Below are positions 30,127 to 47,738 of a stretch of DNA of 64,000 bases, in pieces; within the stretch, counting starts at the first letter, position 1, and every line of letters starts with the position of its first letter. The stretch is from a virus, in IMG/VR virus record IMGVR_UViG_3300036792_000176, positions 23,998-87,997 of that record; one strand, 5' to 3'. The notes beneath the pieces are model-generated. The model saw only the letters and a program-made list of their open reading frames with translations, made no database searches and had not been told where the DNA came from. The translations under genes were made by a program, and so were the position numbers.

Positions 30127-30199
30127 GGGTGTTAGCTCAGCCGGTCAGAGCAGCGGACTCATAATCCGCCGGTCGTGGGTTCGAGCCCCACACACCCCA
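30126..30199 (+). tRNA. tRNA(CAT), probably Ile2 (lysidine type)
   Basis: cloverleaf GGGGTGT/ACACCCC with GCGGA-CTCATAA-TCCGC arm, resembling actinobacterial Ile2. Confidence 0.85.
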
Positions 30200-30201
30200 C
30201 A

Positions 30202-30292
30202 GGGAAGGAGGAAGCCGTATGTGAGCACCTAGATCACACGCCGTGCCTTGCGTGTCGTGCACCACAGCGACGGCAGCGGCATCCTTCTTCCC
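30202..30292 (+). ncRNA. putative structured small RNA
   Basis: 16-bp closing stem GGGAAGGAGGAAGCCG/CGGCATCCTTCTTCCC with two inner hairpins. Confidence 0.6.
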
Positions 30293-30315
30293 GCAAGGTT
30301 GCCACGGGATCCCAC

Positions 30316-30369
30316 GGGGTAGGCGAGAGTGGCAGGGCATGTCGGTTCGAATCCGGCCCGCCTACCCCA
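30316..30369 (+). ncRNA. tRNA minihelix-like RNA (acceptor stem and T arm only)
   Basis: GGGGTAGGCG/CGCCTACCCC-A enclosing GTCGG-TTCGAAT-CCGGC. Confidence 0.65.
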
Positions 30370-30389
30370 CCTAAGTAAGGAGAGGTTAA

Positions 30390-30999
30390 TTGACTGATCA
30401 GGTCCCAGAGAAGATCCCCGCTCCGGAATACGACCCCACAGCCGGTCGGCCTAATCCAGTGCCGGAAACGGTAACCCCTGAGTCGAGGGCGGACGAGGCG
30501 GGCCAGGAGACAATCGCTCCCGAAGTCAAGCACGTCAGCATTCAGGGTGTGGGCGCTACGGCCGGAACCGCTGTGCCAGCAGTCACCCCGGAGAAGCTAC
30601 AGGCTGACGTGCAGGACGTCGAGGCGAAGGCAAAGCCGGTCGTAATCAAGCTGGAGCACGCCATCGCGGCCATCGACAAGTTCCAGGTCGAGAACCCCGG
30701 CATCAGGTCCTGGGTTGTCGAGGGACTCAAGGACGCGCTGACCGCCATCGAGCATCACGAGAGCTAGCCGATCGCCCCGCCTGGGATATCCTGGGCGGGG
30801 CAGCACTCGTTAAGGAGCGGATATGTATTCAAGTCACGAGCTAGCCAGGCGCTTGCTAGAGCTGCCCGACATCGATGTCGTCCTGACGGAAGACGGAGAA
30901 GCCATAACCGGAGCACACGAGAGCACATACGACGATGGCCAGGCAATAGACGTCGAGTGCATCACTCTCGAGACAGGATCCGAAGAAGAGTCTGAGTAA
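30390..30999 (+). CDS. two hypothetical proteins (30390-30767, 30823-30999)
   Basis: AAGGAG RBSs; a hairpin lies between them at about 30774-30801. Confidence 0.65.
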
Positions 31000-31000
31000 C

Positions 31001-31999
31001 ATGGCACCGATCATCCTCCCTATCGTAACCACTAGCGAGCGAACGTGCTTCCGTCGCTGCCCACAGAAGTGGTACTGGCGCTACGTTGATGGCATGGTGC
31101 CCAAGGGAGACGTACCGGATGCTCTCTGGTTCGGCATAGGAGTTCACGAGGCGCTCGCTGCATGGTATCTGAAGGGGAAGAAGCGTGGCCCGCATCCCGC
31201 TGACACCTTCCTGGAGTGGATCGGTGACGAGCAGCGCCACATTCTCGTGTCCCCGGCCGACCACGAGCGCGCCGACGACGAGCGTGCCAAGTTCGACGAT
31301 GCCAGGGAACTCGGTGTGTCCATGCTAGAGGGGTATGTCGAGGAGTGGGGCGAGGATAGCCACTGGCAGGTGCTAGCGATCGAGCGCCCATTCAAGGTGC
31401 TGGTCAAGCACAATGGCGTATCTATCGCTCGCTTCTGGAGTACATGGGACGGCGTGTACCGCGATCTGCGTGACGGCCGCATATACCTCATGGAGCACAA
31501 GACCGCCTCTCAGATACAGACGTCCTACCTCGAGCTCGATGACCAAGCGGGTATCTACTGGGCGCTAGCCGGTGCTATCCTCCGTAAGGAGGGTGTGCTG
31601 AAGGATCGCGAGGAGATCGCTGGCATACAGTACAACTTCCTGCGCAAGAGCAAGCCTGATGAGCGCCCACGGGACGCGAGCGGCGCGTACCTGAATCAGA
31701 ATGGCTCTGTGAGCAAGCGTCAGCCGCCTGAGCGCTACGTCCGGCCGGATCCTATCGAGCGCAGCCCCAGAGAGCGCAAGACTCAGCTCGAGCGTCTCGA
31801 GGGTGAGGTGGTCTGGATGAATGCTATGCGTTGGGGCGATATGCCTGTCATCAAGAGCACCCAGAAGGACTGCACATTCTGCGAGTTCTTCATCATGTGC
31901 AAGGCCCACGAGCGCGGTGGTGAGAACTGGAAGCAGATAGCCAATTCTCAGTTCGCCATTGGCGAAGACCCCTACGACCGATACCGAAAGGCCGCCTGA
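31001..31999 (+). CDS. Cas4/RecB-like PD-(D/E)XK exonuclease
   Basis: S....FRRCP, WDGV, EHKT, Q..IY, CTFCEF...C. Confidence 0.85.
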   Translation: MAPIILPIVTTSERTCFRRCPQKWYWRYVDGMVPKGDVPDALWFGIGVHEALAAWYLKGKKRGPHPADTFLEWIGDEQRHILVSPADHERADDERAKFDDARELGVSMLEGYVEEWGEDSHWQVLAIERPFKVLVKHNGVSIARFWSTWDGVYRDLRDGRIYLMEHKTASQIQTSYLELDDQAGIYWALAGAILRKEGVLKDREEIAGIQYNFLRKSKPDERPRDASGAYLNQNGSVSKRQPPERYVRPDPIERSPRERKTQLERLEGEVVWMNAMRWGDMPVIKSTQKDCTFCEFFIMCKAHERGGENWKQIANSQFAIGEDPYDRYRKAA

Positions 32000-32004
32000 C
32001 AATT

Positions 32005-32032
32005 TTGCATTACGCTCCGGATACGGTATAAT
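32005..32032 (+). promoter_or_regulatory. sigma70-like promoter TTGCAT-N16-TATAAT
   Basis: near-consensus hexamers upstream of the recombinase. Confidence 0.6.
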
Positions 32033-32047
32033 AGTAGTGATGAAAGG

Positions 32048-32956
32048 ATGCAGATGGCACCAGTCAAGCGGGGCGCTCGTCGTGGCCGGCCAACCGCTAA
32101 GTCACAGCGTGAAGAGCCAGAGAGCATGGAGGTTGATGAGGTCGAGGTCGATATTGAGGATCTCGGCTCATTCGCTGAGAGCATCAACATACTGCTCTAT
32201 GGCCCTAGTGGTGTGGGGAAGACCGTACTTGCCGGTGGTGCCCCGAACGCTACTTTCTTCTCGACAGAAAAGGGTGTCATTGCGGCTCGCCGAGCAGGCC
32301 ACAAGGCTGGGCTGATCCGTGTGCCTACCTGGGAGCACGTCGTGGCAGGCCTCAAGGTGGCAGACGCCAGACTGGGCCCTGAAGACTGGCTTATCGTCGA
32401 CAGCATCACGAAGATGCAGATGCTGTACATTCGATGGATCCTCAAGGTCAACAATCAGCGCAACGGCTCTCGTGACCTTGACATCCCTGCCATCCAGGAT
32501 CACCAGAAGTGGCAGAACGGGTACATGCGCTTCATCGACCATATCGTCGATGCGCAGTACAACTCCATACTGATCGCCACGCAGATGATGAAGGAGGACG
32601 AGGAGGGGGAGGACATGATCCTCCCGGCTATCACCGGCAAGGGATACGCGATAGCCGAGTATGTCTGCGCCCAGACAGACGTGAATCTGTACTACAACGT
32701 CTCGGCCACTGCCAGCACCGACGATATGACCATCCGGAGAGCCCTCGCACAACCATATCCCCCTTACCACGCCAAGGACCGGTACAACTGCCTCGGGAAG
32801 TTCGTGGACGTGGAAGAGAACGATTTCGGAGCGATGAATGGAATCATCGGCAGTATCCAGTCAAGCCTCGACGAGCCCGCAAACGACGAGGTACATCAAG
32901 TGCAGCCAGCACAACTCAATCGTCGCACGCGGAAGCGGAATAAGGCTAGTGCATAA
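32048..32956 (+). CDS. AAA_24/Sak4-like RecA-fold recombinase
   Basis: LLYGPSGVGKT, LIVDSIT, AKDR. Confidence 0.85.
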   Translation: MQMAPVKRGARRGRPTAKSQREEPESMEVDEVEVDIEDLGSFAESINILLYGPSGVGKTVLAGGAPNATFFSTEKGVIAARRAGHKAGLIRVPTWEHVVAGLKVADARLGPEDWLIVDSITKMQMLYIRWILKVNNQRNGSRDLDIPAIQDHQKWQNGYMRFIDHIVDAQYNSILIATQMMKEDEEGEDMILPAITGKGYAIAEYVCAQTDVNLYYNVSATASTDDMTIRRALAQPYPPYHAKDRYNCLGKFVDVEENDFGAMNGIIGSIQSSLDEPANDEVHQVQPAQLNRRTRKRNKASA

Positions 32957-33358
32957 GAAGTCTGGCGTGATTTGCACCAGCCAAATGTTCCAGGTCGTCG
33001 AGGTTCCCAAGGTGAACCGAGAGACGGCATTCGCTGAATTTATGGGATGGGATGGCGATGGGCCCGAGCAGCGATCGTCCTCTGCACCCTGATGAGAAGC
33101 TCGGGATCACCGAGCATAAGCCCGAGACATTCTTCATCGTGACAAATGGAGGTCCGCATCCAGGAACCAGGGTGACGGATGAGGGCCAGATGCCATGGCC
33201 ACTACCCGGCATCCTAGGCGACTCGGGCGGACGGTACATCAAGATCTCCGAGAGCAATCTCGGTCCGCAGGGCGCTGGCAGCCGTATCGTGCGAAGCGCT
33301 CTGTACAAATGGGAGTCGGATACCCCATCCGGCGTCGTAGAAGGAGAGGCAGGCCAAG

Positions 33359-34228
<870 letters not shown>

Positions 34229-34247
34229 CAATCCCCCTCAAATAGAC

Positions 34248-34282
34248 GTCCGGCCTGGGCTCTCGCGGGGTCCAGGCCGGAC
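34248..34282 (+). terminator. hairpin
   Basis: GTCCGGCCTGG/CCAGGCCGGAC. Confidence 0.65.
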
Positions 34283-34614
34283 CCAGGAGCAGTTGTGAAT
34301 GATCTAGTCTTCAGGGAAATACAGCTCAACGGCAAGATTACGGTAGAGCTTCCGGCGCATGTATGGATCGGATTCCTCTACGAGTACTCCTCCTGTGAAT
34401 GGAACGGCATATGCGCCAATAGCATAGTTGGCGCTATCCAGGACGGCATGCTTAGCCCTCTGTACGTCAAGGAGAGGGAGGCGGCCATACAAGAGCATTC
34501 GGCCAAGCACAATTCGATCTTCGCGTCATTCCTTGGCATGCCCCCTGGCGTTCCGCCGAACATCTCCGGGATAACCGACGTCGAGCCGAACGAGGAAAAC
34601 GGAGAATCGACAAG

Positions 34615-35445
34615 TTGATAGTCGAGGTGATTGGGTGCGGACCGGCCGGTCTGGCAGCAGCTCACGCCGCTAAGGGTCTGGGCGCAGACGTCGTCATATA
34701 CGCCCCAAAGGCGATGACACCCCAGCGCGGGCCGCTCCTTATGCAGCGTCCAATACCGGGCATCAACACAGGACACCCCGATGGCACGATACACCAGGTC
34801 GTTATCAACGGAAGCATCCTTGACTACCGATACAAGCTATACGGTGACATCAACATCGGTATCAACGGGGACATCCTGAAGCCGCACTACCATGCCTGGA
34901 AGCATAACGAGACGTACGAGACACTATGGGGGATGTACGAGCATCTTGTGGTAGACCGTCGAATCAGGGCTACCGAGCTTGCGTCCATGCATCGCCAATC
35001 TGATCTCGTTGTGAGCACAGCGAATGCGGAGAGCATGTGTATGCGTGGACATACATTCGTCAGCAAGAGTGTTGCGGTAACGACTAGGGCATCGTTTCTC
35101 GATCAACCTGATAACACGATCATATTCAATGCCGGGGACAGCCCAGACTGGGTTCGTAGCTCACTTGTCTTCGGCGTAGGATCAACAGAGTGGCCGACAG
35201 ACAGAGCGCCATCCGGGTCGCACATCATCCGGAAGCCGGTCAGTACGGACTGCGACTGCTATCCTCATGTTCTCCGTACCGGCCGCTTCGGGAAGTGGCA
35301 GAACGAGACCTGGGTAGATACCGCTTACTGGGACGCGTACAATGCCGTGTACAGCATAAAGCACAAAGAAGAAAGGTACCTTATCGATGGCATCTCAGGC
35401 GGGTTCACAGGAGCAGGACTGCTCGATCTGTCTACTGATAGCTAA
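34615..35445 (+). CDS. FAD/NAD(P)-binding oxidoreductase
   Basis: VIGCGPAGLAAA Rossmann motif; C-terminal GRFGKW. Confidence 0.8.
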   Translation: MIVEVIGCGPAGLAAAHAAKGLGADVVIYAPKAMTPQRGPLLMQRPIPGINTGHPDGTIHQVVINGSILDYRYKLYGDINIGINGDILKPHYHAWKHNETYETLWGMYEHLVVDRRIRATELASMHRQSDLVVSTANAESMCMRGHTFVSKSVAVTTRASFLDQPDNTIIFNAGDSPDWVRSSLVFGVGSTEWPTDRAPSGSHIIRKPVSTDCDCYPHVLRTGRFGKWQNETWVDTAYWDAYNAVYSIKHKEERYLIDGISGGFTGAGLLDLSTDS

Positions 35446-35755
35446 CAGGAGGTACATCGAGCTCCACGAACACGGCGTACTCTTCATACCGAACAATGCG
35501 GTCAAGGAAGGGCATATATGTATCGCCCCTCGCATACATGTCCGTAACGTAATCACCAACCCGGTGATAACCGCCCAGGTGTTCCGGCTCGCTGCCATGC
35601 GAGCGGCGGTACTAGCTCCGGTATGTACCATGAGCACAACGGCCGGTAGTGAGTCGGCAAAGATAATCCCCCATTTCTACATTCACGTGATCCCCTCGAC
35701 GGACGAGGAGATAGCCGAGCAGCTTAAGAAGAGGATCAATGAGTCAGGATCGTAA
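35387..35755 (+). CDS. HIT-family nucleotide hydrolase (degenerate triad)
   Basis: GHICIAPRIHV and IPHFYIHVIP (HxHxH changed to HxYxH); start uncertain. Confidence 0.65.
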   Translation: MASQAGSQEQDCSICLLIANRRYIELHEHGVLFIPNNAVKEGHICIAPRIHVRNVITNPVITAQVFRLAAMRAAVLAPVCTMSTTAGSESAKIIPHFYIHVIPSTDEEIAEQLKKRINESGS

Positions 35756-36656
35756 CACAGGCAAAGAAGTCGCCCGCTTCGCTGATGTGGCGATGTACCG
35801 CGCGCAGCACAACGAGATGGCAGACCGTGGAGAGGAGGTCGTGCCCAGGGTATACCTCGTTGCCATGACGCCCAACCCCCTTCGCGTAATGGCGGCCGCT
35901 GCGGAGCTGTACGCTGGACGAGTGGTGACCGACCCGGAGGACATCAGCCGAGAGACAGCGCTCAAATGGTTCGGCGACATGACGCGAACCGCTCTGCAGG
36001 CCCCTCTGGAATTCATCGATCTCCACTTCATGTTCGAGGGCGTGACCCGCGCCTTTACCCACCAGCTCGTGCGGCAGCGTACCGCTGTGTACGTTCAGGA
36101 GAGCCAGCGCTTCGCTGTCAAGGACAACGCTATGCTCGAGGTGTCATACCCTCCGTCCATAGCTAAGCTGAACGATGACCACCCAATGCGCGTCGTCTGG
36201 GACAAGGCCGTAAGCGAAAACTCCTGGGCGTACAACGCCATGGTCGAGGGCGGAATACCGGCTGAGGATGCCCGCGGTCTTCTGCCCACGAACATCACGA
36301 CAAGGGTCCACTACAAGACCAACCTGCGCAACCTCGCTGAGCACGCTGGCATGCGCCTATGCTCGCAGGCCCAGTACGAGTGGAAGCAGGTCTGGTTCGG
36401 GATTCTCGAGGCCATCAACGAGTACGGTCCAGACGATCAGCGGTGGCAGCAGAAGCGTATCGCAAGCCTGTTCCGTCCAATCTGCTATCGCACCGGTAAC
36501 TGCGAGTTCCGGGCAGAGACGGACCGGTTCTGCGCAATCCGCGAGCGCGTTATGGCGCATCACGCCCGTGGCGAGGGGCCACAGACGTGGGTCGACATCG
36601 ACTCCAGGGAAGCTCTGCGAGAGGGCGCGGCGCGGCTAGCGCCCGACATGACGTGA
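35739..36656 (+). CDS. thyX: flavin-dependent thymidylate synthase-like protein
   Basis: PLEF, VTRAFTHQLVRQR-X7-SQRF, EDARGLLP, TNLRNL, RLC..AQ.E. Confidence 0.85.
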   Translation: MSQDRNTGKEVARFADVAMYRAQHNEMADRGEEVVPRVYLVAMTPNPLRVMAAAAELYAGRVVTDPEDISRETALKWFGDMTRTALQAPLEFIDLHFMFEGVTRAFTHQLVRQRTAVYVQESQRFAVKDNAMLEVSYPPSIAKLNDDHPMRVVWDKAVSENSWAYNAMVEGGIPAEDARGLLPTNITTRVHYKTNLRNLAEHAGMRLCSQAQYEWKQVWFGILEAINEYGPDDQRWQQKRIASLFRPICYRTGNCEFRAETDRFCAIRERVMAHHARGEGPQTWVDIDSREALREGAARLAPDMT

Positions 36657-37655
36657 GCAGCAACTACCGACTCATATGCATGTCGCATCACCCCGCAATA
36701 ACTGTAGGCGACGACATGGTTATAGATACAGCCATCAGGTCGTGGGAGAAAGGTGACGACCGGATAGTCGGCCACGAGAATTGCGATCTCATGGTGGGAC
36801 AGTTCTCGTACCCTCTCGTGAGCGTAGGCTGCTTCGGTATGAGCATGCCGAACTCAGGTTGCAAGGGGCATCATCCGAACATAGCATGGATGGACACGGA
36901 GTGGCTGCGAGTCCTCTCTTATGTGATGGTTATCGATGACGAGACCGAGGGTATGCTACGCCCATTCGTGAATGGCTGCTGGACGCCAAGAAGAATGGAT
37001 AGGCTTCAAAATCTCCTCAAGAGGCAGTGATGGCAAAGCTTACCAGGTGGGGATTTGCAGATGCACTGGTAAGGGCTGGCGTGTTCTCGAAAGATCAGAT
37101 TAATGACATAAGAAGGGTGGTGATAGACTGCCCTTTTAATGACAACCCGGTCATGTACGTAGAGATGTCCACATCCCCGAAGGTTATGGACGTATTCCTG
37201 TCCCTAGATGGCATCAAGATAGTCGGTATCCCAACGGAGGACATTCCGGGTGAGCCAGAAGGAATCGACATACGAGCCGCACGGCCTGAGCAGGGTGCTG
37301 AGGCACCTTCTGAATAAGCACGGGTATGAGGGCATAATCAGTTGTCTGAATAACCTGATGGACAATCCGACGGAACGTTACCTATCGCTATGGCCAGAGG
37401 AGGCGAAAACATATGCCGCAGCTAGAACCAGAAGAGAAGGCTTCAAAGCAATCAATGCCAGCTGGCGGAAAGATCGAACACTTCGCTCTTGAGGCCCGTC
37501 TGTATGTCGAGCTAGATGGTCCGGGCTCACACTCTGATGCAGTCAGGCAAGTAGAGGACAGGCTGTCTCTGGTCATGTATAAGGACGACCCCTCGGTAAG
37601 CGGCCCAAAGATACGTGTCATAAAAATCGAAGAGGTAAGGACCAGAAGGACTTGA
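36653..37655 (+). CDS. small hypothetical genes
   Basis: overlapping ORFs ~36653-37030, 37027-37317, 37250-37492, 37413-37655. Confidence 0.5.
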
Positions 37656-38317
37656 GCAAGATGGACGAGAAAGAACTGTTCATATCGATTGACATCGAGA
37701 CTGATGGCCCCTCCCCCGGGCTGAACAGCATGCTATCCCTCGGGGCAGTAGCATTCACGATGGACACCATCGTGGTGGACAGGTTGTATTCATTCTCGAG
37801 GAACATCCTACCGATAGATGGAGCATTCGAGGACGCCGATACCATGGACTGGTGGGACACCCAGGGAGATGCCTGGGAAATGTGCCACAAGGACCAGGTA
37901 GATGCCGTCGACGCAATCGGAGAATTCGCTGGGTGGCTCGAGGACCTATCCGCGTACGGTAAGCTAGTAGCGGTAGCGTGGCCAGCTGGCTTCGACTTCA
38001 CATTCGTTAACTGGTACATGCACCAGTTCTACGGAAAGAACCCCCTCGGATTCGCATGCATGGACATCCGCAGCTACGCGAACGGCCTGTTCGCTGTATC
38101 CGGGTACTACGAGAAGATACCGGAAGGTGATCTGTACAAGATATTCAGCGTCAAGCTGGATGACATAAAGCCACACGTAGCAGTAGACGATGCTCTGCGA
38201 CAGGGTCGCCTCCTCCACTCTCTCCTCCAGTACGCCGAGGACCTCAGGCGTAACCCGACAGAGGCTAGGGCCTGGCTGAACACAATGGCACGGGCTAACG
38301 GAACAGGCTTGGAGTAA
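37652..38317 (+). CDS. DEDDh 3'-5' exonuclease (Rv2179c-like)
   Basis: IDIETDG, FDF, DIRSY, HVAVDDA. Confidence 0.8.
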   Translation: MSKMDEKELFISIDIETDGPSPGLNSMLSLGAVAFTMDTIVVDRLYSFSRNILPIDGAFEDADTMDWWDTQGDAWEMCHKDQVDAVDAIGEFAGWLEDLSAYGKLVAVAWPAGFDFTFVNWYMHQFYGKNPLGFACMDIRSYANGLFAVSGYYEKIPEGDLYKIFSVKLDDIKPHVAVDDALRQGRLLHSLLQYAEDLRRNPTEARAWLNTMARANGTGLE

Positions 38318-39036
38318 TGGCCGAGCCATGCTGTGCCGAGGGTGCATGCTGTTGCATGTCCAACAATAGCGAAAAGGCATGCTTCTGCGTACACAGGAGG
38401 ATAGTTACCTCGCAGAGGATCTTCGGCCTGCAGGATATATCAGTAGACATCCCGCTAACCCTGTACCCGGGCGCATTCACGAGATTGTCAGCAATGGGAG
38501 AACGAGTGACCGAGCACAGCCACCCCCAAACCCTGGAAGCGCATTTCCAGATTGCAATGCTAAAGAACATGGAGTTCGGGAACACCGCTCCGGTTCGTGA
38601 CGGCCGATATGTTCAGCTGGGTGCTGGCAAGAAGTTCATCAGGAACTGGGTGAACCTGGACTACCCCGAGTGGGACGCCGAGAAGATGCCGCTGCCGTTC
38701 GCTGACGAGGAAGTAGACGGCATCGCTAGCTACCACACCCTCGACCATATCAAGGCGGTCATCCCTCTCCTCGCGGAGATCCAGCGGGTGCTAGTGCCGG
38801 GCGGATGGTTCGTAAACATCGTGCCGCACTACGACTCGGAGCTATGGCACTCCGACCTTACCCACGTCAGCCAGTTTGGCACCGAGACGTGGCGCAGTAT
38901 CTTCAGCACGAGGCACTACAACCACGATGCCGTCGAGGGCCACACAGACTGGCACATGAAGATCAAGTTCAACATGGTGATGGCGGTGACCGAGCGGAAC
39001 GCCGTTCTGGTTACAAAGCTAGTCAAGGAGGATTAG
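38317..39036 (+). CDS. class I SAM-dependent methyltransferase-like protein
   Basis: VQLGAG, LPFADEEVD, HTLDH, EIQRVLVPGG, DLTH. Confidence 0.75.
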   Translation: MAEPCCAEGACCCMSNNSEKACFCVHRRIVTSQRIFGLQDISVDIPLTLYPGAFTRLSAMGERVTEHSHPQTLEAHFQIAMLKNMEFGNTAPVRDGRYVQLGAGKKFIRNWVNLDYPEWDAEKMPLPFADEEVDGIASYHTLDHIKAVIPLLAEIQRVLVPGGWFVNIVPHYDSELWHSDLTHVSQFGTETWRSIFSTRHYNHDAVEGHTDWHMKIKFNMVMAVTERNAVLVTKLVKED

Positions 39037-39037
39037 A

Positions 39038-39544
39038 GTGACTGAGATGGATGACCGAACGATGCAACCAGGACAGCACGAAAGAGGAGGTATCCTGGCA
39101 AACTTCCATAACGAGGGAAGAAGGAGAGAGGCGGAAAGAGTCGCTCACGACCCGCTATCGGGCGGCAATGTAGGTGTTCCTGCTTTCGAGGACAGCATTG
39201 CCATTCGCGCCGCCAAACAGTTCATGGATGAGTGCGGCCTAGTGCCAACACCGGATGCCACGGGACAACTGGTGGAGGTGTTCCTCCCGTGCCTTGCGAT
39301 CATGTGCCAGCGTGGCTACGACCCTAACGGAGGCACCTGGCGAAAGTCTGGCCGTCTCGGCGCGCTATCAGACGTCAGGAAGAAGTTCGAGCGTCTGTGG
39401 GAGCGTATGTGGATCAATGGAAAGCGTCACGATGACTCGGCGTTCGATCTCATCAACTTCACCGGCTTTCTTCTGCGCTCTGAAAGGGAAGGGTTCGGGG
39501 AATGGGGAACCCCTAACCTGGACGGCCTTATGCTCGAGGAGTAA
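39038..39544 (+). CDS. nucleotide-modification-associated domain (Nmad1/DUF1599-like)
   Basis: GY...G.W...G....VRKKFERL.......DSAFDLINF pattern. Confidence 0.55.
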   Translation: MTEMDDRTMQPGQHERGGILANFHNEGRRREAERVAHDPLSGGNVGVPAFEDSIAIRAAKQFMDECGLVPTPDATGQLVEVFLPCLAIMCQRGYDPNGGTWRKSGRLGALSDVRKKFERLWERMWINGKRHDDSAFDLINFTGFLLRSEREGFGEWGTPNLDGLMLEE

Positions 39545-39986
39545 CTATGTCTCATATCATTCTGGCGGCAGCGATACTCGTTGTCCTGGGGGTATTCTTG
39601 TTCGCTACCCTCACGCGAGCGATGTCGCGCTCTGGTCTAACTGTCATTACGAGCGGGGACCCGGACTACAAGATGGTCCTGTGTACCGCAAAGGGGTGCA
39701 AGGACGGGTACATAGTCCTCCGCGGAAGCCATGACATGGTCAGCGCCAATCTGTTCCCGTGCGCGATATGCCATGGAACAGGCCATGTCATGAGGAAGGT
39801 GACGAATGCCTAGTAGTCCTGAGGACGAGCTGAGGGAAGCTACGATCGGACTCGCCAACTCGTACAACTACGTGTGCTCGTTCGGCAATGCGGACGATTA
39901 CGTGAATGAGGAGAACATAACAACCAACACATTCAAGTTCACTCACGATGGCAAGATGTTCAGGGCTACCGTAGTGAAGGAGGGGG

Positions 39987-40925
39987 ATGGTAAAGAAGAA
40001 GAAGTTCTGCAACATGCATCACCATAACACGATGTCATTCGGTGATGGATTCGGAACTGCGAAACAGCATGCAGAGCGCGCCGCTGAGCTAGGGTACCAG
40101 ATCATAGCCGCAACAGACCATGGGAATGTAAGCTCTCATTTCCAGCTAGAGAAGGCAGCCAACAAGGTAGGTCTGAAGGCGGTCTTCGGAGTGGAGGCAT
40201 ACTGTGGGTCTGTGGACCCGGATACGAGGACGCAGTTCAAGAATCACCTCACAATTCTCGCCATGGATGCCGGAGGGTACCGAAGTCTCAACCGAATCGT
40301 CACACAGTCATGGCGGGACTATTACTATCACCCAACGGTCAGCGAGACCTCGCTACGTGATAACAATGACGGTCTCATCGTCCTATCTGGATGCTCTGGA
40401 AGCAGGCTGGCTTGCGCAATGCTTGGAGGAAAGGGCACAGAAGAACATAACGACACTCCTGACCTTGAGGCGGCGGCATTCGTCGTCGAGCAGTACCAGG
40501 CAATCTTTGGGGAGAGATATTATCTAGAGATTCAGCCGTTCTATGAGCTTGAGCGTAGCTGTACCATGAATCAGTCATACGTTCAGCTTAGCCAGTGGTT
40601 CGATATCCCCCTCGTGGTTACGCACGACGTCCATTACCCGCGGATGGAAGACGCCGAGATGCAGGCAGTCCTCCATGCCGCGAGGCGCGGCGGTGATAGC
40701 GTTGACGACGCTATGCGCAAGTGGAATTACGACGTGCCGCTAACCCTACCGTCCAAGGACAGCCACCTAGCATCTCGCCTGATGAAGACCGGCCTGAGCC
40801 GCGAGGACGCATGGCAGGCCATAGAGAACAGCGAGTACGTAGCCAGCCTATGCAACGTAACGCTGCCTAAGGCTGAGCGCCTACGCTACCCCGTCGCCGA
40901 GAAGGACCTGGAGCCATGGACATAG
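39987..40925 (+). CDS. dnaE: DNA polymerase III alpha, N-terminal PHP-domain part
   Basis: MHHH..MSFGDG, TDHG, GVEAY, HLTILA, LSGC, YLEIQ, THDVHY. Confidence 0.9.
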   Translation: MVKKKKFCNMHHHNTMSFGDGFGTAKQHAERAAELGYQIIAATDHGNVSSHFQLEKAANKVGLKAVFGVEAYCGSVDPDTRTQFKNHLTILAMDAGGYRSLNRIVTQSWRDYYYHPTVSETSLRDNNDGLIVLSGCSGSRLACAMLGGKGTEEHNDTPDLEAAAFVVEQYQAIFGERYYLEIQPFYELERSCTMNQSYVQLSQWFDIPLVVTHDVHYPRMEDAEMQAVLHAARRGGDSVDDAMRKWNYDVPLTLPSKDSHLASRLMKTGLSREDAWQAIENSEYVASLCNVTLPKAERLRYPVAEKDLEPWT

Positions 40926-41650
40926 AGGAGGCGCTAGATCTTCTGGAGAGCGTGGTGATTCGTCCGGAGCCTAAGCCGATTCTATTCACTCTGTTCTACG
41001 ACCCCAACATCCCTCTGAAGGACCAGATATGGCCGAAGCACAACTCGTAAGGTGCCGATGCGAGTCATGCTGTCCATGGCAGCCTCCATGCCCAAATGCC
41101 GCCACCCAGGAAGACTGGCTGTGTGATGTATGTAGGGTAGCGGTAAACGGAAATCAGGAAGACGATCAGCACTGTCACACCGAGATGATAGATGAAAGGA
41201 ACAAGGGAATAGACGGCGATATTGATGCGAAAATAGAAGAGCATCTTCGCAATACTCTTGGTGCCCGTAGGATTCCGTACATACCCGCAAACGAGCTAGA
41301 AGGAAGCCAAGACGGTACGGCAGCTTACACTTGGCCGGACGATGCCGCGTAGGGTAGCGCCGGGAAAATCTGGCAAAGTCGGCATAACAGATGAAGAGCT
41401 AGAGATCTTCATGCCTCAACTAGATGCTGCATGGAAGGTGATTGATAGCTGGCCACTAGGACAGCCGATGAAGGACATGGCTGCGCTCATAGTTCTCAAG
41501 GTTATTGCAGTCACATCGAAGCAGCTCGACGATGTCGGTGTGTACGGTAGGCTAGAGCGTAGAGCTACCGGTGTTCGGGACGAAATGATGGAGAAAGCGT
41601 ATGCCGACAAAGCAGCTATCGAGTTCACTGACGACTGCGGTTTCTTCTGA
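40916..41650 (+). CDS. three small ORFs inserted between the dnaE halves (40916-41050, 41029-41352, 41342-41650)
   Basis: mutually overlapping + strand ORFs; the middle one is Cys-rich. Confidence 0.6.
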
Positions 41651-43979
41651 AGACCTGATATGGCAATGGTGCCGATTCGGCTGGACATTCCGTGGCATCG
41701 GCAAGCGCCCCCAAGAGCAAAAGGACTGGTATGTCTCCCGTCTGAAGTACGAGATGGGTCTCATCATCAGCAAGGGTTTTGCAGACTTCTTCCTGGTCAC
41801 AAGTGACATGGTTCGCTGGGCTAAGGATTACCGGGGCCCGGAGGCTCCGCACGGTATACCCGTAGGGCCCGGACGCGGTAGCGTCGCGGCTAGCGTCGTC
41901 GCCTGGATGCTGAGGATAACGGAGGTCGATCCTGTACGGTACCCCAACCTCCTATTCGAGAGGTTCCTTGATATCACCAGGTCCGATCTTCCTGATATCG
42001 ACCTGGACATATCTGACGAGCATAGGTATCTCGTCCGTGACTATATGGCAAAGAGGTACGGGCAAGATTGCGTTGGGAGCGTCGCAAACTTCGTCCGGTA
42101 TCGAGGTAAGAATAGCCTGGCCGACGTAGCACGGGTGTATGAAGTCCCCAGCTACGCGAAGGAGGTAGTGAGCAACCTGATCATTGAGCGATCAGGCGGA
42201 GACTCACGATTCGACTCCGGGCTAGAGGATACTGTGAATATGTTCCCGGCCGCCAAAGAGATATTCGACGCTTACCCCAAGCTCTGGCAGGCTACGCGCC
42301 TCGAGGGCAACGTACGCGGCATGAGCGTTCACGCCGCCGGGCTGATCGTTACCCAGACCCCTCTCACAGACATATGCGCCGTGTACGAGCGCGAGGCCGC
42401 CGGTGAGATCCGGCAGGTGCTTAGCATCGACAAGTATGACGTTGAGTACGCCGAGATGATCAAGATGGACCTTCTCGGGCTTAGCACTATGGGAGTTATA
42501 GCTAACTGCCTTGAGATGACAGGACTAACCCTGGAGGATCTTTATGGTATACCAGATGATGACCCTAAAGCGCTGGCGGTATTTCGCAACGGTGACGTCA
42601 CAGGGATATTTCAGTTTGAGGGCCGGGCGACCAGGCTGGTCAACAGGGATGTACATCCTGATAATTTCTCCGAGGTCACCGATATCAACGCGCTATCACG
42701 TCCGGGTCCGCTTTTCTCCGGTACCACCGCAGAATATTGCGACGTCAAGCACGGCCGTCGTGAGCCCGAACGATACCACCCCCTCGTCACTGATATCACA
42801 GCTCACACAAAGGGCCAGATCATATACCAGGAACAGATCCTGCAAATTGTACGTGATGTGGGAGGATTCGACTGGACCCACGCAGTCGAGATACGACGAA
42901 TCATCAGCAAGAAGATGGGTGAGGCCGCATTCGGCGTTTCGATGGGAGCGTTCGTAGAGGGGGCAGCAAGGCTACATGGAATCGATGAACACACCGCAGA
43001 CAGAATCTGGAAGCGTCTCGTCACTAGCGGCACTTATGCTTTTGTCTATGCTCACTCCGTCAGTTACTCTATCCTTGGACTATGGTGCGCCTGGCTCAAG
43101 GCACACTATCCTCTTGAGTTCTATGCCGCCCACCTCGCGAAGACGGAAGACGCCGAGCAGCGATTCAAGCTGATGAGAGACGCCCAGGCTCACGGCATAA
43201 CGATAATGCCGCCCGTTCTCAATTGGAGCGGCAAGAGCTGGAAGCCAGTCCGAAAGATGAATAGCCTAGTAGCGGGCTGGCGCGAGATACCGGGCATAGG
43301 CGAGAAGACTGCCGACAACATAGCCAAGTTCAGAGAGGAGAACGGTAAGTTCCGTAGCTGGGGTCAGCTTCAGGAGATCAAGGGAATTGGCCCAAAGACT
43401 GTAGATAAGATGTACGCATTTTCCACATCAAATGATCCATTCGGACTTAAGATCACCGGTCAGCGCCTAGAGCGAGTGCGCAAGTTCATAGAGACCAATA
43501 ATAAATTCGCAGAGGAGATGTTCGCCGAAGGATCATTCAAGCAGCAGACGGCAAGGGTCCCGGTTCCTACGCATAATGGAGCTGAGGTAGCGGCGATACA
43601 CATCAAGGAGGAATATGGAGCCAACGCCAAGAAGAACTATGGCAAGGGACCACGCGTTGTTTATATGGGTATTGTACGCGAGAGAAACATGCAGGATGCC
43701 GTCGAGAACCGACGATCGCGTACTGGCGAGGAAGCAGAAGATATTCTCGCCAGCCTATACCGACCGGATCTCCTCAGCTATTGCTCGCTACGCTGTATCG
43801 ATACCACGGAAGAGGAGGTCTACATACGAGTCAATCGTTTCGTATTCCCTCGCGTCAAGAAGAAGATCCAGTCAATCGTAGAGGGCCGCGACGTTATCAT
43901 ATGTGTGGGCCAGCGTATAGCCGGTTTCGGCACCCCGGTAATGGCCGACGAGATATACATAATCGATCCAGACGATTAG
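41601..43979 (+). CDS. dnaE: DNA polymerase III alpha, catalytic part
   Basis: GPGRGS, LLFERFL, PDIDLD, HAAG, KMDLLGL, GIFQF, YQEQ, LKAHYPLEFY. Confidence 0.92.
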   Translation: MPTKQLSSSLTTAVSSEDLIWQWCRFGWTFRGIGKRPQEQKDWYVSRLKYEMGLIISKGFADFFLVTSDMVRWAKDYRGPEAPHGIPVGPGRGSVAASVVAWMLRITEVDPVRYPNLLFERFLDITRSDLPDIDLDISDEHRYLVRDYMAKRYGQDCVGSVANFVRYRGKNSLADVARVYEVPSYAKEVVSNLIIERSGGDSRFDSGLEDTVNMFPAAKEIFDAYPKLWQATRLEGNVRGMSVHAAGLIVTQTPLTDICAVYEREAAGEIRQVLSIDKYDVEYAEMIKMDLLGLSTMGVIANCLEMTGLTLEDLYGIPDDDPKALAVFRNGDVTGIFQFEGRATRLVNRDVHPDNFSEVTDINALSRPGPLFSGTTAEYCDVKHGRREPERYHPLVTDITAHTKGQIIYQEQILQIVRDVGGFDWTHAVEIRRIISKKMGEAAFGVSMGAFVEGAARLHGIDEHTADRIWKRLVTSGTYAFVYAHSVSYSILGLWCAWLKAHYPLEFYAAHLAKTEDAEQRFKLMRDAQAHGITIMPPVLNWSGKSWKPVRKMNSLVAGWREIPGIGEKTADNIAKFREENGKFRSWGQLQEIKGIGPKTVDKMYAFSTSNDPFGLKITGQRLERVRKFIETNNKFAEEMFAEGSFKQQTARVPVPTHNGAEVAAIHIKEEYGANAKKNYGKGPRVVYMGIVRERNMQDAVENRRSRTGEEAEDILASLYRPDLLSYCSLRCIDTTEEEVYIRVNRFVFPRVKKKIQSIVEGRDVIICVGQRIAGFGTPVMADEIYIIDPDD

Positions 43980-43987
43980 GAGGGGTG

Positions 43988-45771
43988 ATGGCATACTCTA
44001 GTAACAAGGCCCTGATAGTCGAGGTTGAGTCAGAATTCGAAGACTCGTATGACGGCACAGAGGTGTACCTGAACGGCTGCAAGATAGGGTACCGCGCCTG
44101 GGACGGGAAAAGCAGGGAAGAGATAAGCGAAGAAGTGTCTCAGGCGCTAGCAGAGCTGCTTCGCGAGAAGCTAGGGTGGCCAGAGAACAGCTACGATCCG
44201 ATATCAGAGGAATAGTTAGATACCGTACATGGTGAAGGATTCGTACAAAGGATGGCCATATCGTGGAGATCGTTACGACCAGAAATAGATATGGTATCAC
44301 ATAGCTCGTCTCCGCGAGGCCGCCGGTGATCTGGATGGTGCAGCGCGGGCCAGACAGACGGCTCGTATCCTCCCGAATATGAAACTCAGAAGAAAGTTCT
44401 GGTACTGATGGCAATTCAGGTACACATAACAGATAGCTTTATGGTTGATGGTGTCGCCATATACATCACAGAGAAATTCGATCGCAGCAACAGGCGTCTG
44501 CTCCAGATCAACGGTGACACAAGGGAGTGGAAGGAAATCGTCGATCCTGGCATAATCGAAAAGCCCACATTCTCATTCAACGGGGAAGAGGCGCGAGCGC
44601 TTCACGAGGCGCTCGCAGGATTCTATCAGGGCTCTCCTGATCTGCATATGGTTAGAGCTGATCTAATCCACGAGCGCGGCCGCGTCGACAGGATGATGGA
44701 AACGATGATGCGGCTGGCCGAGACGCCACAGACTGTTCGTCTGATAACCGGTGGTGACTGATGGGGACGTCTAGGCTTAATCCACGCAACACCAGGAAGA
44801 TAGCCCGTGCCACCGGCCTGAACGTAATCATGGCATGGAGTGGCGGCGGATACGACCTGGGCTTCGTGACATCGGATCATGTGCACGGAGTGTTCCACAA
44901 GAAGGACGAAACGTGGGAGGTATTCGATAAAGACCCTGACAAACTAGGAAACCACATGACATCATGCCGTGAGCTATTTCCTGATGATTTCGATGATGTC
45001 TGACTACTGGTTCTGGCAAAGGTACGATGCCATCCTACTCCAGAAGCATGAGAAGGAACATGTTGAAGCAGATACCAGGGACGATAATTGTCCGCACTGT
45101 GCCTCTGGTCGTTAGCTCGGAGAGCATGGATGACGATGACTTCGTGATGCATATGAACAGGAGGCACAGGGATAGTTTTGGCGGCGGTTATGTAAAGTAC
45201 GAGACCCCGGCCCACATGGCGGATCTTAGGCACTTCCATGACCAGCTACATACCCTGAGGCTGAACGTAGCCCACGAGCACGAGTAGGGGATATGCGAAG
45301 AGAAGTCATCAGAACGAGCACAAGAAATATGCAGACAGGGGTAACGAGCACATATGACCAGACCACATACACTATGCCCGAGAAAGAGTTCCTAGAGAGA
45401 CTGGGGATAGAGTCTTCAGAAGGGGTTCTGGGTATCAGACATGACTTCATAACATCTGAGAAGAATATCACGATAACCATGAGGAAGAAGGCTGCAGAGT
45501 GAAGATATTCAGGCACAGGCACAGGTGGCGCGCTACCGGCGTAGAGCATGTCATCAGCCCCTTCTCATTCACGTCTATCAATGATCACGCCACAACCGTT
45601 CTATGGCACTGTAGGTGTAGTCTCGTATGCTCGACAGAGGTTCGCGGGTACTGGACGCTGGACCAGATACATGGAAATTCCGTGATATCGGATGGCCTGA
45701 TGATCTATGCAGCTATGAGCGACGTTATGGCGAGAGCTGCGGTTCGTACGGAGCCCGTAGCTCCGAAATAA
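43988..45771 (+). CDS. run of small hypothetical genes
   Basis: 43988-44215, 44408-44761, 44761-45003, 45027-45287, 45293-45502, 45499-45771. Confidence 0.6.
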
Positions 45772-46033
45772 GGCGTCCGAACCCGGGCCCTAGCCGTTCC
45801 GCCGCCCGGCGATTTACTCTCCGTACGTGCGAGCTCCATAGGGTTTCCAGAGGGTCCCCGTCCGGCCGCGCTACCCCTCCGCCCGGCCGAATTATAACGA
45901 TTCTATTACGGGGTAACGAAACGATATACTGCACCCCTACCTAGCGGAGTAGCGTCACGTCTTGCAAGACGCGCTGCAGTGGCACCCAGCCCCGGTAACG
46001 AGTCGGCGCGTTCCTTCTTAGAATGGACAGGAA

Positions 46034-46912
46034 ATGTTCGGGAACATCTTTACCAGGAGTGTCCGTAGCATGCTCGGCATGCTCGGGATCGTCGGTGTGA
46101 CGATCGTGACCATGGTGATGCTAGCAACGTCAGCCATGGGCAGCCTCGCAATGAATGGTCCGTCTTCGTACAACGAGGAACAGGTGCAGGTTGCTGTGGC
46201 TCCGGCCTCCCACAGCACACTGGCCAAGACGGTCGCATTCCAGATGTCAGCTCTGGCAAGGGCCGCTCACAGCATGTCGGCGGCTACAGCTCCCGTCCTC
46301 GTTCACCTGCCGAGCATCTACCGTGTGAAATCCGGCCAGAGCCTATCGAGCATAGCAGCCGCGGTGTACGGCAACAGCAAGGCATGGACGGCCATCTACT
46401 GGGCCAACAAGAACACCATCAAGTACGCGAACATCGTCTACGTCGGGCAGGCCCTCAGCATTCCGGCGATGCCCGCGTCAATCCCCGCCCCTCCCTCGCA
46501 GCTCTCACCACCGGCTCCCCCGGCTCCCCCGGCTCCCCCGGCTCCGCCCCAGCCCAAGGTTATCCTGGCGTCGGACAACGACAGCGACAGCACCCCCTCG
46601 CACACCTCGTCGTACGTGCCGCCGCAGCCGGCACAGGCTCCCGCCCCTGCTCCAGTCACGTCCAGTAACTACAGCGTTAACTCCTCGTTCCAGGCATGCG
46701 TGATACGCGCTGAGTCCGGCGGCAACGCCCAGATCTGGAATGCCAGCGGGCACTACGGACTGTACCAGTTCAGCGAGCAGACCTGGGTCGCGTACGGCGG
46801 TAACGCCGGAGACTTCGGTCACGCCTCGGCGGCCGAGCAGACGCAGGTGTTCGACAACGCGATGGCGACGGCCGGTGGTGCGAACAATTGGGCACCGTAC
46901 GACGGCTGCTAG
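46034..46912 (+). CDS. secreted LysM + Rpf-like transglycosylase
   Basis: signal/TM segment; LysM YRVKSGQSLSSIA; Pro linker; AESGGN..GLYQF..TW..YGG...ASAAEQ. Confidence 0.85.
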   Translation: MFGNIFTRSVRSMLGMLGIVGVTIVTMVMLATSAMGSLAMNGPSSYNEEQVQVAVAPASHSTLAKTVAFQMSALARAAHSMSAATAPVLVHLPSIYRVKSGQSLSSIAAAVYGNSKAWTAIYWANKNTIKYANIVYVGQALSIPAMPASIPAPPSQLSPPAPPAPPAPPAPPQPKVILASDNDSDSTPSHTSSYVPPQPAQAPAPAPVTSSNYSVNSSFQACVIRAESGGNAQIWNASGHYGLYQFSEQTWVAYGGNAGDFGHASAAEQTQVFDNAMATAGGANNWAPYDGC

Positions 46913-46929
46913 TCAGCAGCCCAAACGCT

Positions 46930-46965
46930 GAAGGCCGGCCACCCAGCCCCGGGTGGTCGGCCTTC
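46930..46965. terminator. bidirectional terminator between the two genome arms
   Basis: GAAGGCCGGCCACCC/GGGTGGTCGGCCTTC between convergent genes. Confidence 0.8.
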
Positions 46966-46979
46966 TCTATGCCCTAAAT

Positions 46980-47738
46980 TCAGGCGGTTGTCTTGCCTGC
47001 TATCTTGTACGGCGGAGTCCAGTCCGCAGTCTCCGAGCTGACCCGCTTCGACTCGCAAAGCTCGCCGGACGAGTCGGTGCCTACCGCGTAGAGGTTGCCA
47101 GCCTTATCGGTATACACCCCGCACACCTTGATCGGGATGGCCGAGAATGTCATGGCGGGCTTCGGGGCCGGGGCCGGGGCCGGGGTGACCGTCGCCTTCT
47201 TCGACACGTTCTCCGCCCACGGGGTAGAGAACACATTGACATCGTACGTGCCTTCGTCCCCAAACTGCCACCCGACTATCGGGAACGGGCCGCCGCTGTT
47301 CTCCACCATCGCGGTAGCCTGGGCCTGCGTCACGCCCCACTTCGCTACCACGAGGCCGACGCCCGAGGTAACCCCGCCACTCACCAGTGCGTTGCACACC
47401 GGTGTGAGGTTGCTGTAGCTCGCGTAGATGGCCGGTGATCGCTGCCCGGGGCGTACGGCCTTTTCGAAGTTTGCCTTGGCAGCCTGGGCCCATTTGGCGA
47501 GATCCGCCAGGGTAGCCGCGCCAGCCTCATAGTCGAGGTAGTCAGCCGTCTCATCGATATTCGTTAGGACGGGACTCTGGTCGATGCGCAGACAGTTGGG
47601 GTTGGCGTCGAGCTGCGCGGCGGTGGCGATGATGTCAGAGCTGCCGGTTACGTAAAGGGCTCTGATGCGACCGTCGTTTGGCACGAGATGTAGATTGGCG
47701 CTTATGGCGTCGTAACCGACCTGGGTTGCTACTGACAT
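46980..47738 (-). CDS. endolysin, GH25-like muramidase
   Basis: LDYE, AIYAS, VAKW, GWQF, YDVNVF; PAPAPAP linker; at the end of the late operon. Confidence 0.65.
   Translation of the reverse strand: MSVATQVGYDAISANLHLVPNDGRIRALYVTGSSDIIATAAQLDANPNCLRIDQSPVLTNIDETADYLDYEAGAATLADLAKWAQAAKANFEKAVRPGQRSPAIYASYSNLTPVCNALVSGGVTSGVGLVVAKWGVTQAQATAMVENSGGPFPIVGWQFGDEGTYDVNVFSTPWAENVSKKATVTPAPAPAPKPAMTFSAIPIKVCGVYTDKAGNLYAVGTDSSGELCESKRVSSETADWTPPYKIAGKTTA

Follow-up and report, generated by a model that had tools for sequence, protein, structure and literature searches.

The closest described counterparts of the gene block addressed here, which spans positions 34615-43979 of a 64,000-nucleotide stretch of viral DNA (the window, comprising the last 64 kb of the single 87,997-bp record IMGVR_UViG_3300036792_000176; all coordinates are window positions), occur in cluster D mycobacteriophages, including PBI1, PLot, and Benzema, and in the Gordonia phage Madi (Terapinvirus), in which SEA-PHAGES annotation discloses the same gene families arranged in the same module. 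The set of oxidoreductase, methyltransferase, DnaE, and ThyX-like proteins is listed among the typical cluster D functions in PMC10893344, and the literature search on this cassette found genome announcements listing annotations only, with no functional study. Judged from sequence comparison, the block is a member of a cassette for which annotation exists in cluster D mycobacteriophages and in Gordonia, Microbacterium, and Streptomyces phages, and partly shared with Pbunavirus. We give an even chance to the block being a replication and thymidylate-supply module of known type, ordinary but for its atypical enzymology; production of a new DNA base by the block is possible yet on the unlikely side.

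Compared to the cluster D phages and Madi, the window proteins show identities of 28.7% for the oxidoreductase, 34-40% for the methyltransferase, 36-40% for the ThyX-like protein, and 47% for the DnaE-like DNA polymerase III (Pol III) alpha subunit. A Cas4-like exonuclease and a RecA-like ATPase are common to both, and the ThyX proteins display the same RQR/RTR motif and Cys residues. Madi also resembles the window in combining the oxidoreductase, the methyltransferase, and the ThyX-like protein with a DnaE encoded in two genes. On the other hand, the window differs from these phages in that (i) the ThyX gene directly follows that of the flavoprotein, (ii) an Nmad1-like protein is added, with no hidden Markov model (HMM) match in Benzema or Madi, (iii) the 5' nucleotidase and the FabG-like reductase are missing, and (iv) two extra open reading frames (ORFs) lie inside the DnaE split.

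Pbunavirus 14-1 presents, on one strand, the order ORF65 flavoprotein, ThyX, phosphatase, exonuclease, and DnaE. Its gp60 falls into the atypical ThyX clade of the window, Cys motifs included (hhalign probability 99.8%), its gp57 exonuclease shares phrog_192 with the window DEDDh exonuclease, and its DnaE core is 36% identical (3e-88), but unsplit, unlike that of the window. The gp13 methyltransferase shares phrog_6636, but is encoded at a different genome location, far from DnaE. The flavoprotein (gp66/ORF65) belongs to phrog 4828, versus phrog 8720 in the window, and the two proteins align over only ca. 54 N-terminal columns (78.8% probability; HMM E 0.019). Phage 14-1 also encodes a HAD-type 'PNK/phosphatase' and shows no match to the Nmad1-like protein. 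In addition, a 280-aa protein from Pbunavirus PA5 ranks third among the viral structural matches to the window flavoprotein (E 1.7e-8, TM 0.48). The chemistry has been measured for F8 and 14-1: F8 DNA resists five restriction enzymes with TG in their site, and liquid chromatography-mass spectrometry of F8 and 14-1 revealed thymidine derivatives of 362 and 390 U in a TG context, replacing about one-quarter of T (Yee et al., bioRxiv 10.1101/2025.03.31.646159). The available portion of that preprint names no biosynthetic gene for the modification and mentions neither ThyX nor thymidylate.

A second system of thymidine hypermodification, that of Pseudomonas phages M6 and PaMx11, involves a flavoprotein (PaMx11 gp47, 286 aa) and an acetyltransferase, as described by Lee et al. 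(PMC8989533). The window contains a flavoprotein of similar size and a weak GNAT match. The nine proteins of the PaMx11 hypermodification cluster, searched by tblastn against the genome, gave a best E of 0.29, and no 5-hmdU DNA kinase, aGPT-Pplase2, ThyA-type dUMP hydroxymethylase, or gp47 homolog was found by tblastn or by the Pfam scan, which covered 118 ORFs of at least 60 aa over the 88-kb genome. The flavoprotein was specifically considered as a relative of gp47 and rejected (hhalign 11% probability, with only the Rossmann motif shared over 40 columns). Finally, canonical ThyX from Thermotoga maritima (PDB codes, 1kq4 and 1o26) has in common with the window protein the Thy1 domain and the Arg, Ser, Glu, and Gln positions that contact dUMP, whereas the window enzyme shows the replacements H53 to Leu, H79 to Gln, H178 to Gln, and S83 to Val, a C-terminal extension of ca. 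80 aa, and four invariant Cys residues.

Architecture and Conservation of the Block

The block comprises 15 ORFs, all on the + strand, with overlapping or nearly abutting stops and starts, and only two gaps of ca. 100 nt, at 37317-37413 and 40925-41029. It is preceded by three genes that take part in the conserved synteny. The genes are as follows:

31001-31999, + strand, PD-(D/E)XK (Cas4-like) exonuclease, first gene of the conserved synteny (PF12705, 1.3e-15)
32048-32956, + strand, AAA_24 RecA-like/Sak4-type ATPase, conserved in the related loci (PF13479, 4.8e-19)
33359-34228, + strand, 289-aa protein with an acidic and Ala/Lys/Pro-rich tail ending in EEPPF (low-complexity Pfam matches only)
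34615-35445, + strand, virus-only two-domain flavoprotein, 'oxidoreductase' (phrog_8720, 7e-45)
35387-35755, + strand, HIT-like small protein with a degenerate triad, accessory (PF01230, 18.9 bits; cut-off 21.5)
35739-36656, + strand, ThyX-like protein of a divergent phage clade (PF02511, 1.2e-34, 120.2 bits)
36587-37030, + strand, 147-aa ORF (no Pfam, PHROG, or NCBIfam family; homologs only in L004 and G005)
37027-37317, + strand, 96-aa ORF (no Pfam or PHROG family; homolog in L004 only)
37413-37655, + strand, 80-aa ORF (no Pfam or PHROG family; homolog in L004 only)
37652-38317, + strand, DEDDh 3'-5' exonuclease (DnaQ-like), accessory (PF16473, 8.5e-10)
38317-39036, + strand, small class I S-adenosylmethionine (SAM) methyltransferase (Methyltransf_11, 1.1e-9; phrog_6636, 5.8e-44)
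39038-39544, + strand, 168-aa small helical protein, 'Nmad1-like' (language-model lead to DUF1599 only)
39547-39813, + strand, 88-aa ORF with a hydrophobic N-terminus and a C-terminal Cys-rich CxxCxGxG-type motif (no Pfam family; homolog in L004)
39806-40027, + strand, 73-aa ORF (no family)
39987-40925, + strand, N-terminal PHP domain of DnaE, as a separate gene (PF02811, 1.1e-29)
41029-41352, + strand, 107-aa Cys-rich ORF between the DnaE halves (no family; homolog in L004)
41342-41650, + strand, 102-aa ORF between the DnaE halves (no family; homologs in L004 and L008)
41601-43979, + strand, DnaE polymerase core comprising palm/NTPase, fingers, and HhH (PF07733, 6e-63; PF17657, 1.2e-36; HhH families)

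The related loci were obtained by scanning IMG/VR with an alignment of the flavoprotein, which gave 31 loci of ca. 20 kb each (L001 and following; fetched relatives are labeled G001-G005), in which the window proteins were then placed by tblastn; three pairs are near duplicates (L005/L006, L015/L026, and L020/L021), so that the independent number is somewhat lower. A common order recurs in these loci: PDDEXK exonuclease, AAA_24 ATPase, 289-aa protein, flavoprotein, ThyX, 168-aa protein, PHP domain, and DnaE core. The ThyX gene stands directly after that of the flavoprotein in 30 of the 31 loci, the single miss being a contig that ends at that point, and the 168-aa protein is present in 25, with three of the six misses in truncated contigs. 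The coupling of these genes, as an earlier note on this DNA had proposed from the letters alone, is borne out by the run of overlapping ORFs on a single strand, and the arrangement exceeds chance because the core order recurs across the IMG/VR loci. On the other hand, the methyltransferase (6/31), the HIT-like protein (3/31), and the DEDDh exonuclease (3/31) are sporadic additions that lie outside the conserved core.

ThyX-Like Enzyme and Its Flavoprotein Partner

The ThyX-like protein is assigned with a wide margin at the family level (Pfam Thy1, 120.2 bits against a cut-off of 24.8), in agreement with the earlier note. A profile of 22 members of its clade, aligned to T. maritima ThyX, reveals that Q75, R78, R80, E86, S88, R90, R147, and R174 of the latter, which we take to be the dUMP-binding residues, are all kept and are invariant or nearly so in the clade. 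The atypical features of the clade are shared by Benzema, Madi, and gp60 from Pbunavirus 14-1. A second, more distant type of ThyX takes the place of the window type in eight loci (L015, L016, L019-L021, L023, L024, and L026), displaying 29-35% identity to the window protein, the motif RTR, and again four Cys residues, and is still located after the flavoprotein.

The flavoprotein, termed a flavin oxidoreductase in the earlier note, upholds that name through phrog_8720 (7e-45) and a model of a two-domain FAD-enzyme fold of the GR2 type (AlphaFold 2, AF2; mean predicted local distance difference test, pLDDT, 88.9), with Pfam giving sub-threshold Rossmann matches only (Pyr_redox_2, 20.8 bits; cut-off 26.1). 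The N-terminal GxGxxG dinucleotide-binding motif, GCGPAGLAAAHAA, is invariant, as are three cysteines, and 298 metagenomic homologs were found. In the ESM Atlas, viral clusters make up 24 of the nearest 30, and the nearest named cellular clusters are flavin amine oxidases; the sequence search of the PDB had no match better than E 0.28. The structural comparison reaches E 1.6e-7 with Foldseek and Z 10.9-13.6 with VIA among the matches listed (50 flavoenzymes), with UDP-galactopyranose mutase, protoporphyrinogen oxidase, class A monooxygenases/aromatic hydroxylases, and amine oxidases tied at Z 11-13.6. The assignment of a specific function from the fold was consequently rejected, with at least 50 flavoenzyme classes tied in Foldseek and VIA.

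The association between both proteins extends to a predicted fusion, P0159, a 563-aa protein in which the flavoprotein is continuous with a ThyX domain of the RTR type described above, encoded in a 3,969-nt contig from the JGI; this is one instance, retrieved when longer homologs of the flavoprotein were sought, and known as a predicted protein only. The flavoprotein and the ThyX-like enzyme would be expected to act together on the same nucleotide, the pairing itself being the observation. In the simplest version, the pair may constitute a thymidylate synthase in which the partner flavoprotein shares or feeds the flavin chemistry.

The Split DnaE

The earlier note recognized a DnaE gene, and the family assignment holds (PF02811 and PF07733), whereas the single gene does not: the PHP domain (39987-40925) and the polymerase core (41601-43979) are separate, with a stop at 40925, a new start at 41601, and two ORFs in between. 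The PHP gene matches positions 2-278 of the NCBIfam Pol III alpha models, and the core matches phrog_11165 (2e-257). The window PHP domain aligns to Benzema DnaE at 10101-11018, and PHP domain and core together cover the unsplit Benzema protein from end to end. Among the 21 loci holding both parts, the boundary between PHP and palm is split in 13 and fused in eight, with inserts ranging from none to 1.1 kb.

Two causes for the split were considered and rejected. An intron was ruled out by the Rfam search at gathering threshold, which gave two tRNAs only in the window, and an intein was ruled out because the PHP ORF ends 3-18 residues past its family matches and the core starts ca. 36 residues before its own, leaving no room for an intein N-fragment. 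The gene is thus simply split, with ORFs inserted between its two parts. The region separating PHP and core in relatives contains ORFs that appear by eye to be MazG-like (GEEAGE...ELADV; L009:19102-19446, L027:13910-14260, and L008:6825-7088) and, in L022:14419-14889, one that appears by eye to be DEDDh-exonuclease-like. This boundary appears to be a preferred place for the insertion of nucleotide-metabolism genes.

The 168-aa Protein and the Accessory Genes

The 168-aa protein (39038-39544), called Nmad1-like in the earlier note, owes this name to its neighborhood in the ESM Atlas, in which DUF1599 clusters are adjacent (score 0.90, 193/256 features) and 13 of the 30 listed matches are DUF1599; the DUF1599/Nmad1 HMM (PF07659) itself matches neither the window protein, nor any protein of its genome at E<=10, nor any of 25 family members, so that the assignment is not sustained at the HMM level. 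The structural comparison with the Atlas DUF1599 neighbors gives TM 0.43/0.55. The AF2 model (pLDDT 77.7) weakly resembles the small helical bundles of the MazG/HisE type, and the best VIA match, 2p06, at Z 7.1, lies below the meaningful range for helical proteins; HisE and MazG entries come next, at Z 4.6-5.9. MazG enzymes carry an acidic EExxE-type metal motif; the invariant residues of the 168-aa protein include no such motif. Homology with Benzema gp63 or Madi gp61 was considered and ruled out, with none detectable. In one locus the protein forms part of a 399-aa fusion (L016:1834-3033), comprising (i) an N-terminal domain that resembles PRA-PH and MazG only faintly (E 0.015 and 0.051), (ii) the 168-aa Nmad1-like domain, and (iii) a C-terminal domain with no match.

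The methyltransferase, proposed in the earlier note as SAM-dependent, is well supported by Methyltransf_11 (39.2 bits against a cut-off of 21.2) and phrog_6636. Its homologs measure 172-243 aa, and the real start probably lies downstream of 38317, because homologs are ca. 180 aa long. With a core of ca. 150-180 aa, it matches small-molecule-type families only, and neither a DNA methyltransferase family HMM (N6A, N4C, or C5) nor a target-recognition domain was found in it; weak NCBIfam matches correspond to lipid and arsenite methyltransferases, and PDB 2p8j and PE N-methyltransferase were matched as well. The DEDDh exonuclease also stands as proposed, with the Rv2179c-like family PF16473 at 39 bits against a cut-off of 27, all of the DxE, D, and HxxxxD motifs readable, and matches to phrog_255 and phrog_192, 'DNA polymerase exonuclease subunit'. 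In contrast, the designation of 35387-35755 as a HIT hydrolase is not upheld. HIT hydrolases comprise a HxHxHxx triad in which the central His is nucleophilic; here, the triad reads H-F-Y-I-H-V-I, with Tyr at the central position, and the Pfam score remains under the cut-off. The true start of this gene is probably downstream of 35445. Among the small ORFs, the CxxCxGxG motif of the 88-aa product resembles that of the DnaJ zinc finger.

Upstream of the block, homologs of the PD-(D/E)XK exonuclease are found in the related loci, and the Benzema and Madi counterparts are annotated as exonuclease, whereas those of the AAA_24 ATPase are annotated as RecA-like DNA recombinase. The 289-aa protein is encoded between the RecA-like ATPase and the flavoprotein, with its N-terminal 160 aa conserved across the loci and a weak match to phrog_9460 'methyltransferase' (4e-8). 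Its EEPPF tail resembles what we take to be the C-terminal tip of bacterial single-stranded DNA-binding protein (SSB), and the protein is probably SSB-like. A 190-nt run free of CA and TG, at 34040-34229, lies in this tail.

Three further genes that the earlier note had placed elsewhere in the window fared unevenly. The MazG-like gene (29357-29920) matches no Pfam family at E<=1, and the SLOG candidate (9492-9917) shows only a faint YAcAr match at E=0.11; the GNAT gene (10081-10764) barely passes as Acetyltransf_1, with 21.0 bits against 20.7. The absences listed in that note are confirmed at the Pfam level, with no ThyA, dCMP deaminase, DNA kinase, glycosyltransferase, Que, or PurZ family among the scanned ORFs.

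CA/TG-Free Islands

The genome contains 12 runs of at least 70 nt free of CA and TG, compared with 0.15 expected from first-order Markov simulations, and dinucleotide pairs of a frequency similar to CA/TG give 0-3 runs. The earlier note regarded the block as the natural partner of these islands, and the comparison of relatives does not sustain this view. At least one CA/TG-free run is present in 20 of the 31 loci and none in 11. The whole-genome counts cover the five fetched relatives, together with Benzema and 14-1, as follows:

G001, 7 CA/TG-free runs of at least 70 nt
G004, 10 runs
G005, 8 runs
G002 (65 kb, ca. 87% complete; flavoprotein, methyltransferase, ThyX, 168-aa protein, and DnaE all present), 0 runs
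G003 (31-kb fragment), 0 runs
Benzema (block present), 1 run
14-1 (TG-modified), 2 runs

The block is insufficient for islands, because G002 and Benzema carry it with 0 and 1 run, respectively, and islands also occur in loci without the methyltransferase, HIT-like, and DEDDh exonuclease genes. Block and islands do not co-vary, and the islands were removed as positive evidence for the block; this outcome neither proves nor cleanly refutes a modification role of the latter. Furthermore, islands do not appear to be a necessary sign of TG modification, because 14-1, which is TG-modified, has only two runs. The observed-to-expected ratios of palindromes split by CA/TG content are 0.95 versus 0.85 in this genome, a difference short of significance (p=0.36), with the same direction in all eight genomes compared, a set that includes no unmodified control.

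Several observations concern the location of the islands and the genes that accompany them. In G001, the record behind L027 (73.7 kb, with direct terminal repeats), six of the seven runs are located at the ends, in 1-446 and 73195-73693, and reach up to 254 nt. Two window genes, 17758-18531 and 24434-25663, are the only ones common to G001, G004, and G005 yet absent from the island-free G002 and from Benzema; both are also present in the island-free fragment G003. The product of 17758-18531 shows a short match (E 2e-4) to ORF12 of 14-1 (DUF6011), which adjoins the methyltransferase of that phage, and a 98-nt CA/TG-free run, 17662-17759, ends at the start codon (17758) of this gene.

Proposed Function and Alternative Readings

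In the replication and thymidylate-supply module that we consider an even bet, the divergent ThyX-like enzyme, assisted by the dedicated virus-only flavoprotein encoded just upstream, would convert dUMP to thymidylate, with dTMP as the presumed product of a presumed chemistry. The small helical protein resembling DUF1599/MazG would act on the nucleotide pool, and the phage's own Pol III alpha would copy the DNA as two polypeptides, the PHP domain and the polymerase core, with the optional DnaQ-like DEDDh exonuclease assisting it. Outside the core stand the sporadic accessories, comprising methyltransferase, HIT-like protein, exonuclease, and small ORFs. The recognizable parts can be explained without any new base, and ThyX, DnaE, and the exonuclease require no new chemistry. 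The modification operon proposed in the earlier note, a pyrimidine route different from those characterized, thus retains one of its components, a set of coupled nucleotide-type enzymes beside a phage DnaE with no characterized modification gene, and loses the other, the partnership with the islands.

A number of features weigh against this plain reading. The ThyX-like protein falls just under the NCBIfam equivalog cut-off (TIGR02170, 85.8 against 87.9 bits). The classical ThyX motif is RHRxxS(x)4S, whereas the window enzyme reads RQRxxV (R112-Q113-R114-T-A-V...E-S-Q-R), with Q113 invariant in 22 of 22 clade members. The equivalents of T. maritima H53, H79, and H178, to which we attribute roles in folate stacking (His53) and FAD contact, are Leu86, Gln113, and Gln210, with Leu86 at least 90% conserved in the clade. 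Four Cys residues, C208, C249, C255, and C265, are invariant in the clade, three of them within the C-terminal extension of ca. 80 aa that is absent from the classical enzyme. The plain reading gives no reason for a thymidylate synthase to need a dedicated flavoprotein. In addition, the ThyX clade, the methyltransferase family, the exonuclease PHROG, and the DnaE of the window recur in Pbunavirus 14-1 and F8, whose DNA is reported to contain hypermodified T; the 12 CA/TG-free runs of the window genome would be explained by a TG-directed mark.

A rival reading, which we hold as tentative and rather unlikely, is that the ThyX-like enzyme, the flavoprotein, and the Nmad1-like protein, perhaps with the methyltransferase, make or start a TG-context thymidine hypermodification such as that of F8 and 14-1, with the phage's own DnaE accepting or tolerating it. 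It draws on the TG-context hypermodified T in F8 and 14-1, for which the available text of the preprint (bioRxiv 10.1101/2025.03.31.646159) names no genes, on the components that 14-1 shares with the window (ThyX clade, 99.8%; phrog_6636; phrog_192; DnaE core, 3e-88), on the structural match of the flavoprotein to the 280-aa protein of PA5 (E 1.7e-8, TM 0.48), on the loss of the three His equivalents, and on the tight linkage of flavoprotein and ThyX, with one fusion. The shared genes may, nevertheless, simply be co-inherited with the replication module, and the flavoprotein and 14-1 gp66 have only their ca. 54 N-terminal columns in common. A mark confined to TG must moreover be set at the level of DNA, and the substrate of ThyX-type enzymes is free dUMP; about three-quarters of T stays canonical in F8 and 14-1, according to the same preprint, and family searches disclosed no DNA-binding or base-flipping enzyme, kinase, or sugar transferase look-alike in the block. 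With regard to the islands, a similarly tentative and rather unlikely extension sees them as stretches (promoters, hairpins, and two protein tails) from which modifiable sites are excluded, in line with 12 runs against 0.15 expected and with the 7, 10, and 8 runs of G001, G004, and G005. Against it stand the lack of co-variation between islands and block (0 runs in G002, 1 in Benzema, and 2 in 14-1), the absence of the methyltransferase from 25 of the 31 loci, several of them with islands, and a palindrome avoidance by CA/TG content that gives p=0.36 here and the same trend in eight genomes, with no unmodified control among them. The boldest form of the idea, which we regard as doubtful, would have the atypical ThyX-like enzyme and its obligate, virus-only flavoprotein form a two-part flavoenzyme that makes or primes a TG-context thymidine derivative and not simply dTMP; the block would then hold the biosynthetic genes of the Pbunavirus type, and in this soil phage the modification would be so strong that promoters, hairpins, and two protein tails had to become CA/TG-free.

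A further possibility, which we deem improbable, is that the flavoprotein, the methyltransferase, the HIT-like protein, and the Nmad1-like protein are unrelated to DNA bases and serve as host-takeover or metabolic helpers traveling with the replication genes. Redox or cofactor housekeeping, small-molecule or protein methylation, and nucleotide-signal hydrolysis would be examples of such tasks, at the same low probability. The methyltransferase does resemble small-molecule class I enzymes and is far from DnaE in 14-1, the flavoprotein fold is generic, with several flavoenzyme classes tied, the HIT triad is degenerate, and methyltransferase, HIT-like protein, and exonuclease are sporadic. A flavoprotein encoded beside ThyX in 30 of 31 loci, and fused to it once, is nonetheless hard to square with an unrelated role; the Nmad1-like domain is fused in L016 to a domain with faint MazG and PRA-PH similarity (E 0.015 and 0.051), and neighboring genes in cultured relatives are annotated as 5' nucleotidase or phosphatase.

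Genomic Context and Provenance

The 87,997-bp record carries a 136-bp direct repeat at its ends, has a G+C content of 58.4%, and is classed as a virus, with an estimated completeness of ca. 93%. The block is present in only one public sequencing run, a soil metagenome from 2020 that is probably its source, and no nucleotide-level match to the block emerged from a megablast search of 50,697 phage records. The best protein matches of the DnaE core are in cluster D mycobacteriophages, at 47% identity, and all 1,396 matching records lie below 60%. Taken together, the DnaE matches, the soil run, and the missing nucleotide match place the genome, by sequence, as that of an uncultured phage from soil with a distant relationship to actinobacteriophages; the host is probably an actinobacterium.

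Two tRNA-Met (CAT) genes, at 28380-28454 and 30126-30200, lie 1.7 kb apart among the middle genes. The promoter and terminator scan of 30000-47000 is uninformative on transcription units: seven promoter-like and five terminator-like elements were found, both under the means of shuffled sequences (9.5 and 10.4, respectively).

Implications

If the plain reading is true, the block is an ordinary phage replication module, and the finding mainly corrects gene names. Beyond this, the comparison defines a ThyX-like clade, present in cluster D, Gordonia, and Pbunavirus phages and in many soil phages, that has lost three His residues, gained four Cys residues, and is accompanied by a dedicated flavoprotein, once fused to it. 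The genes common to Pbunavirus and the actinophage-like genomes, namely the ThyX-like protein, the phrog_6636 methyltransferase, and possibly the flavoprotein, constitute a small and testable set of candidates for the Pbunavirus modification. The CA/TG-free islands of the genome represent an independent, so far uncoupled hint of TG-directed chemistry, and the particular value of this phage lies in the presence of the cassette and of a strong CA/TG-island system together in one genome.

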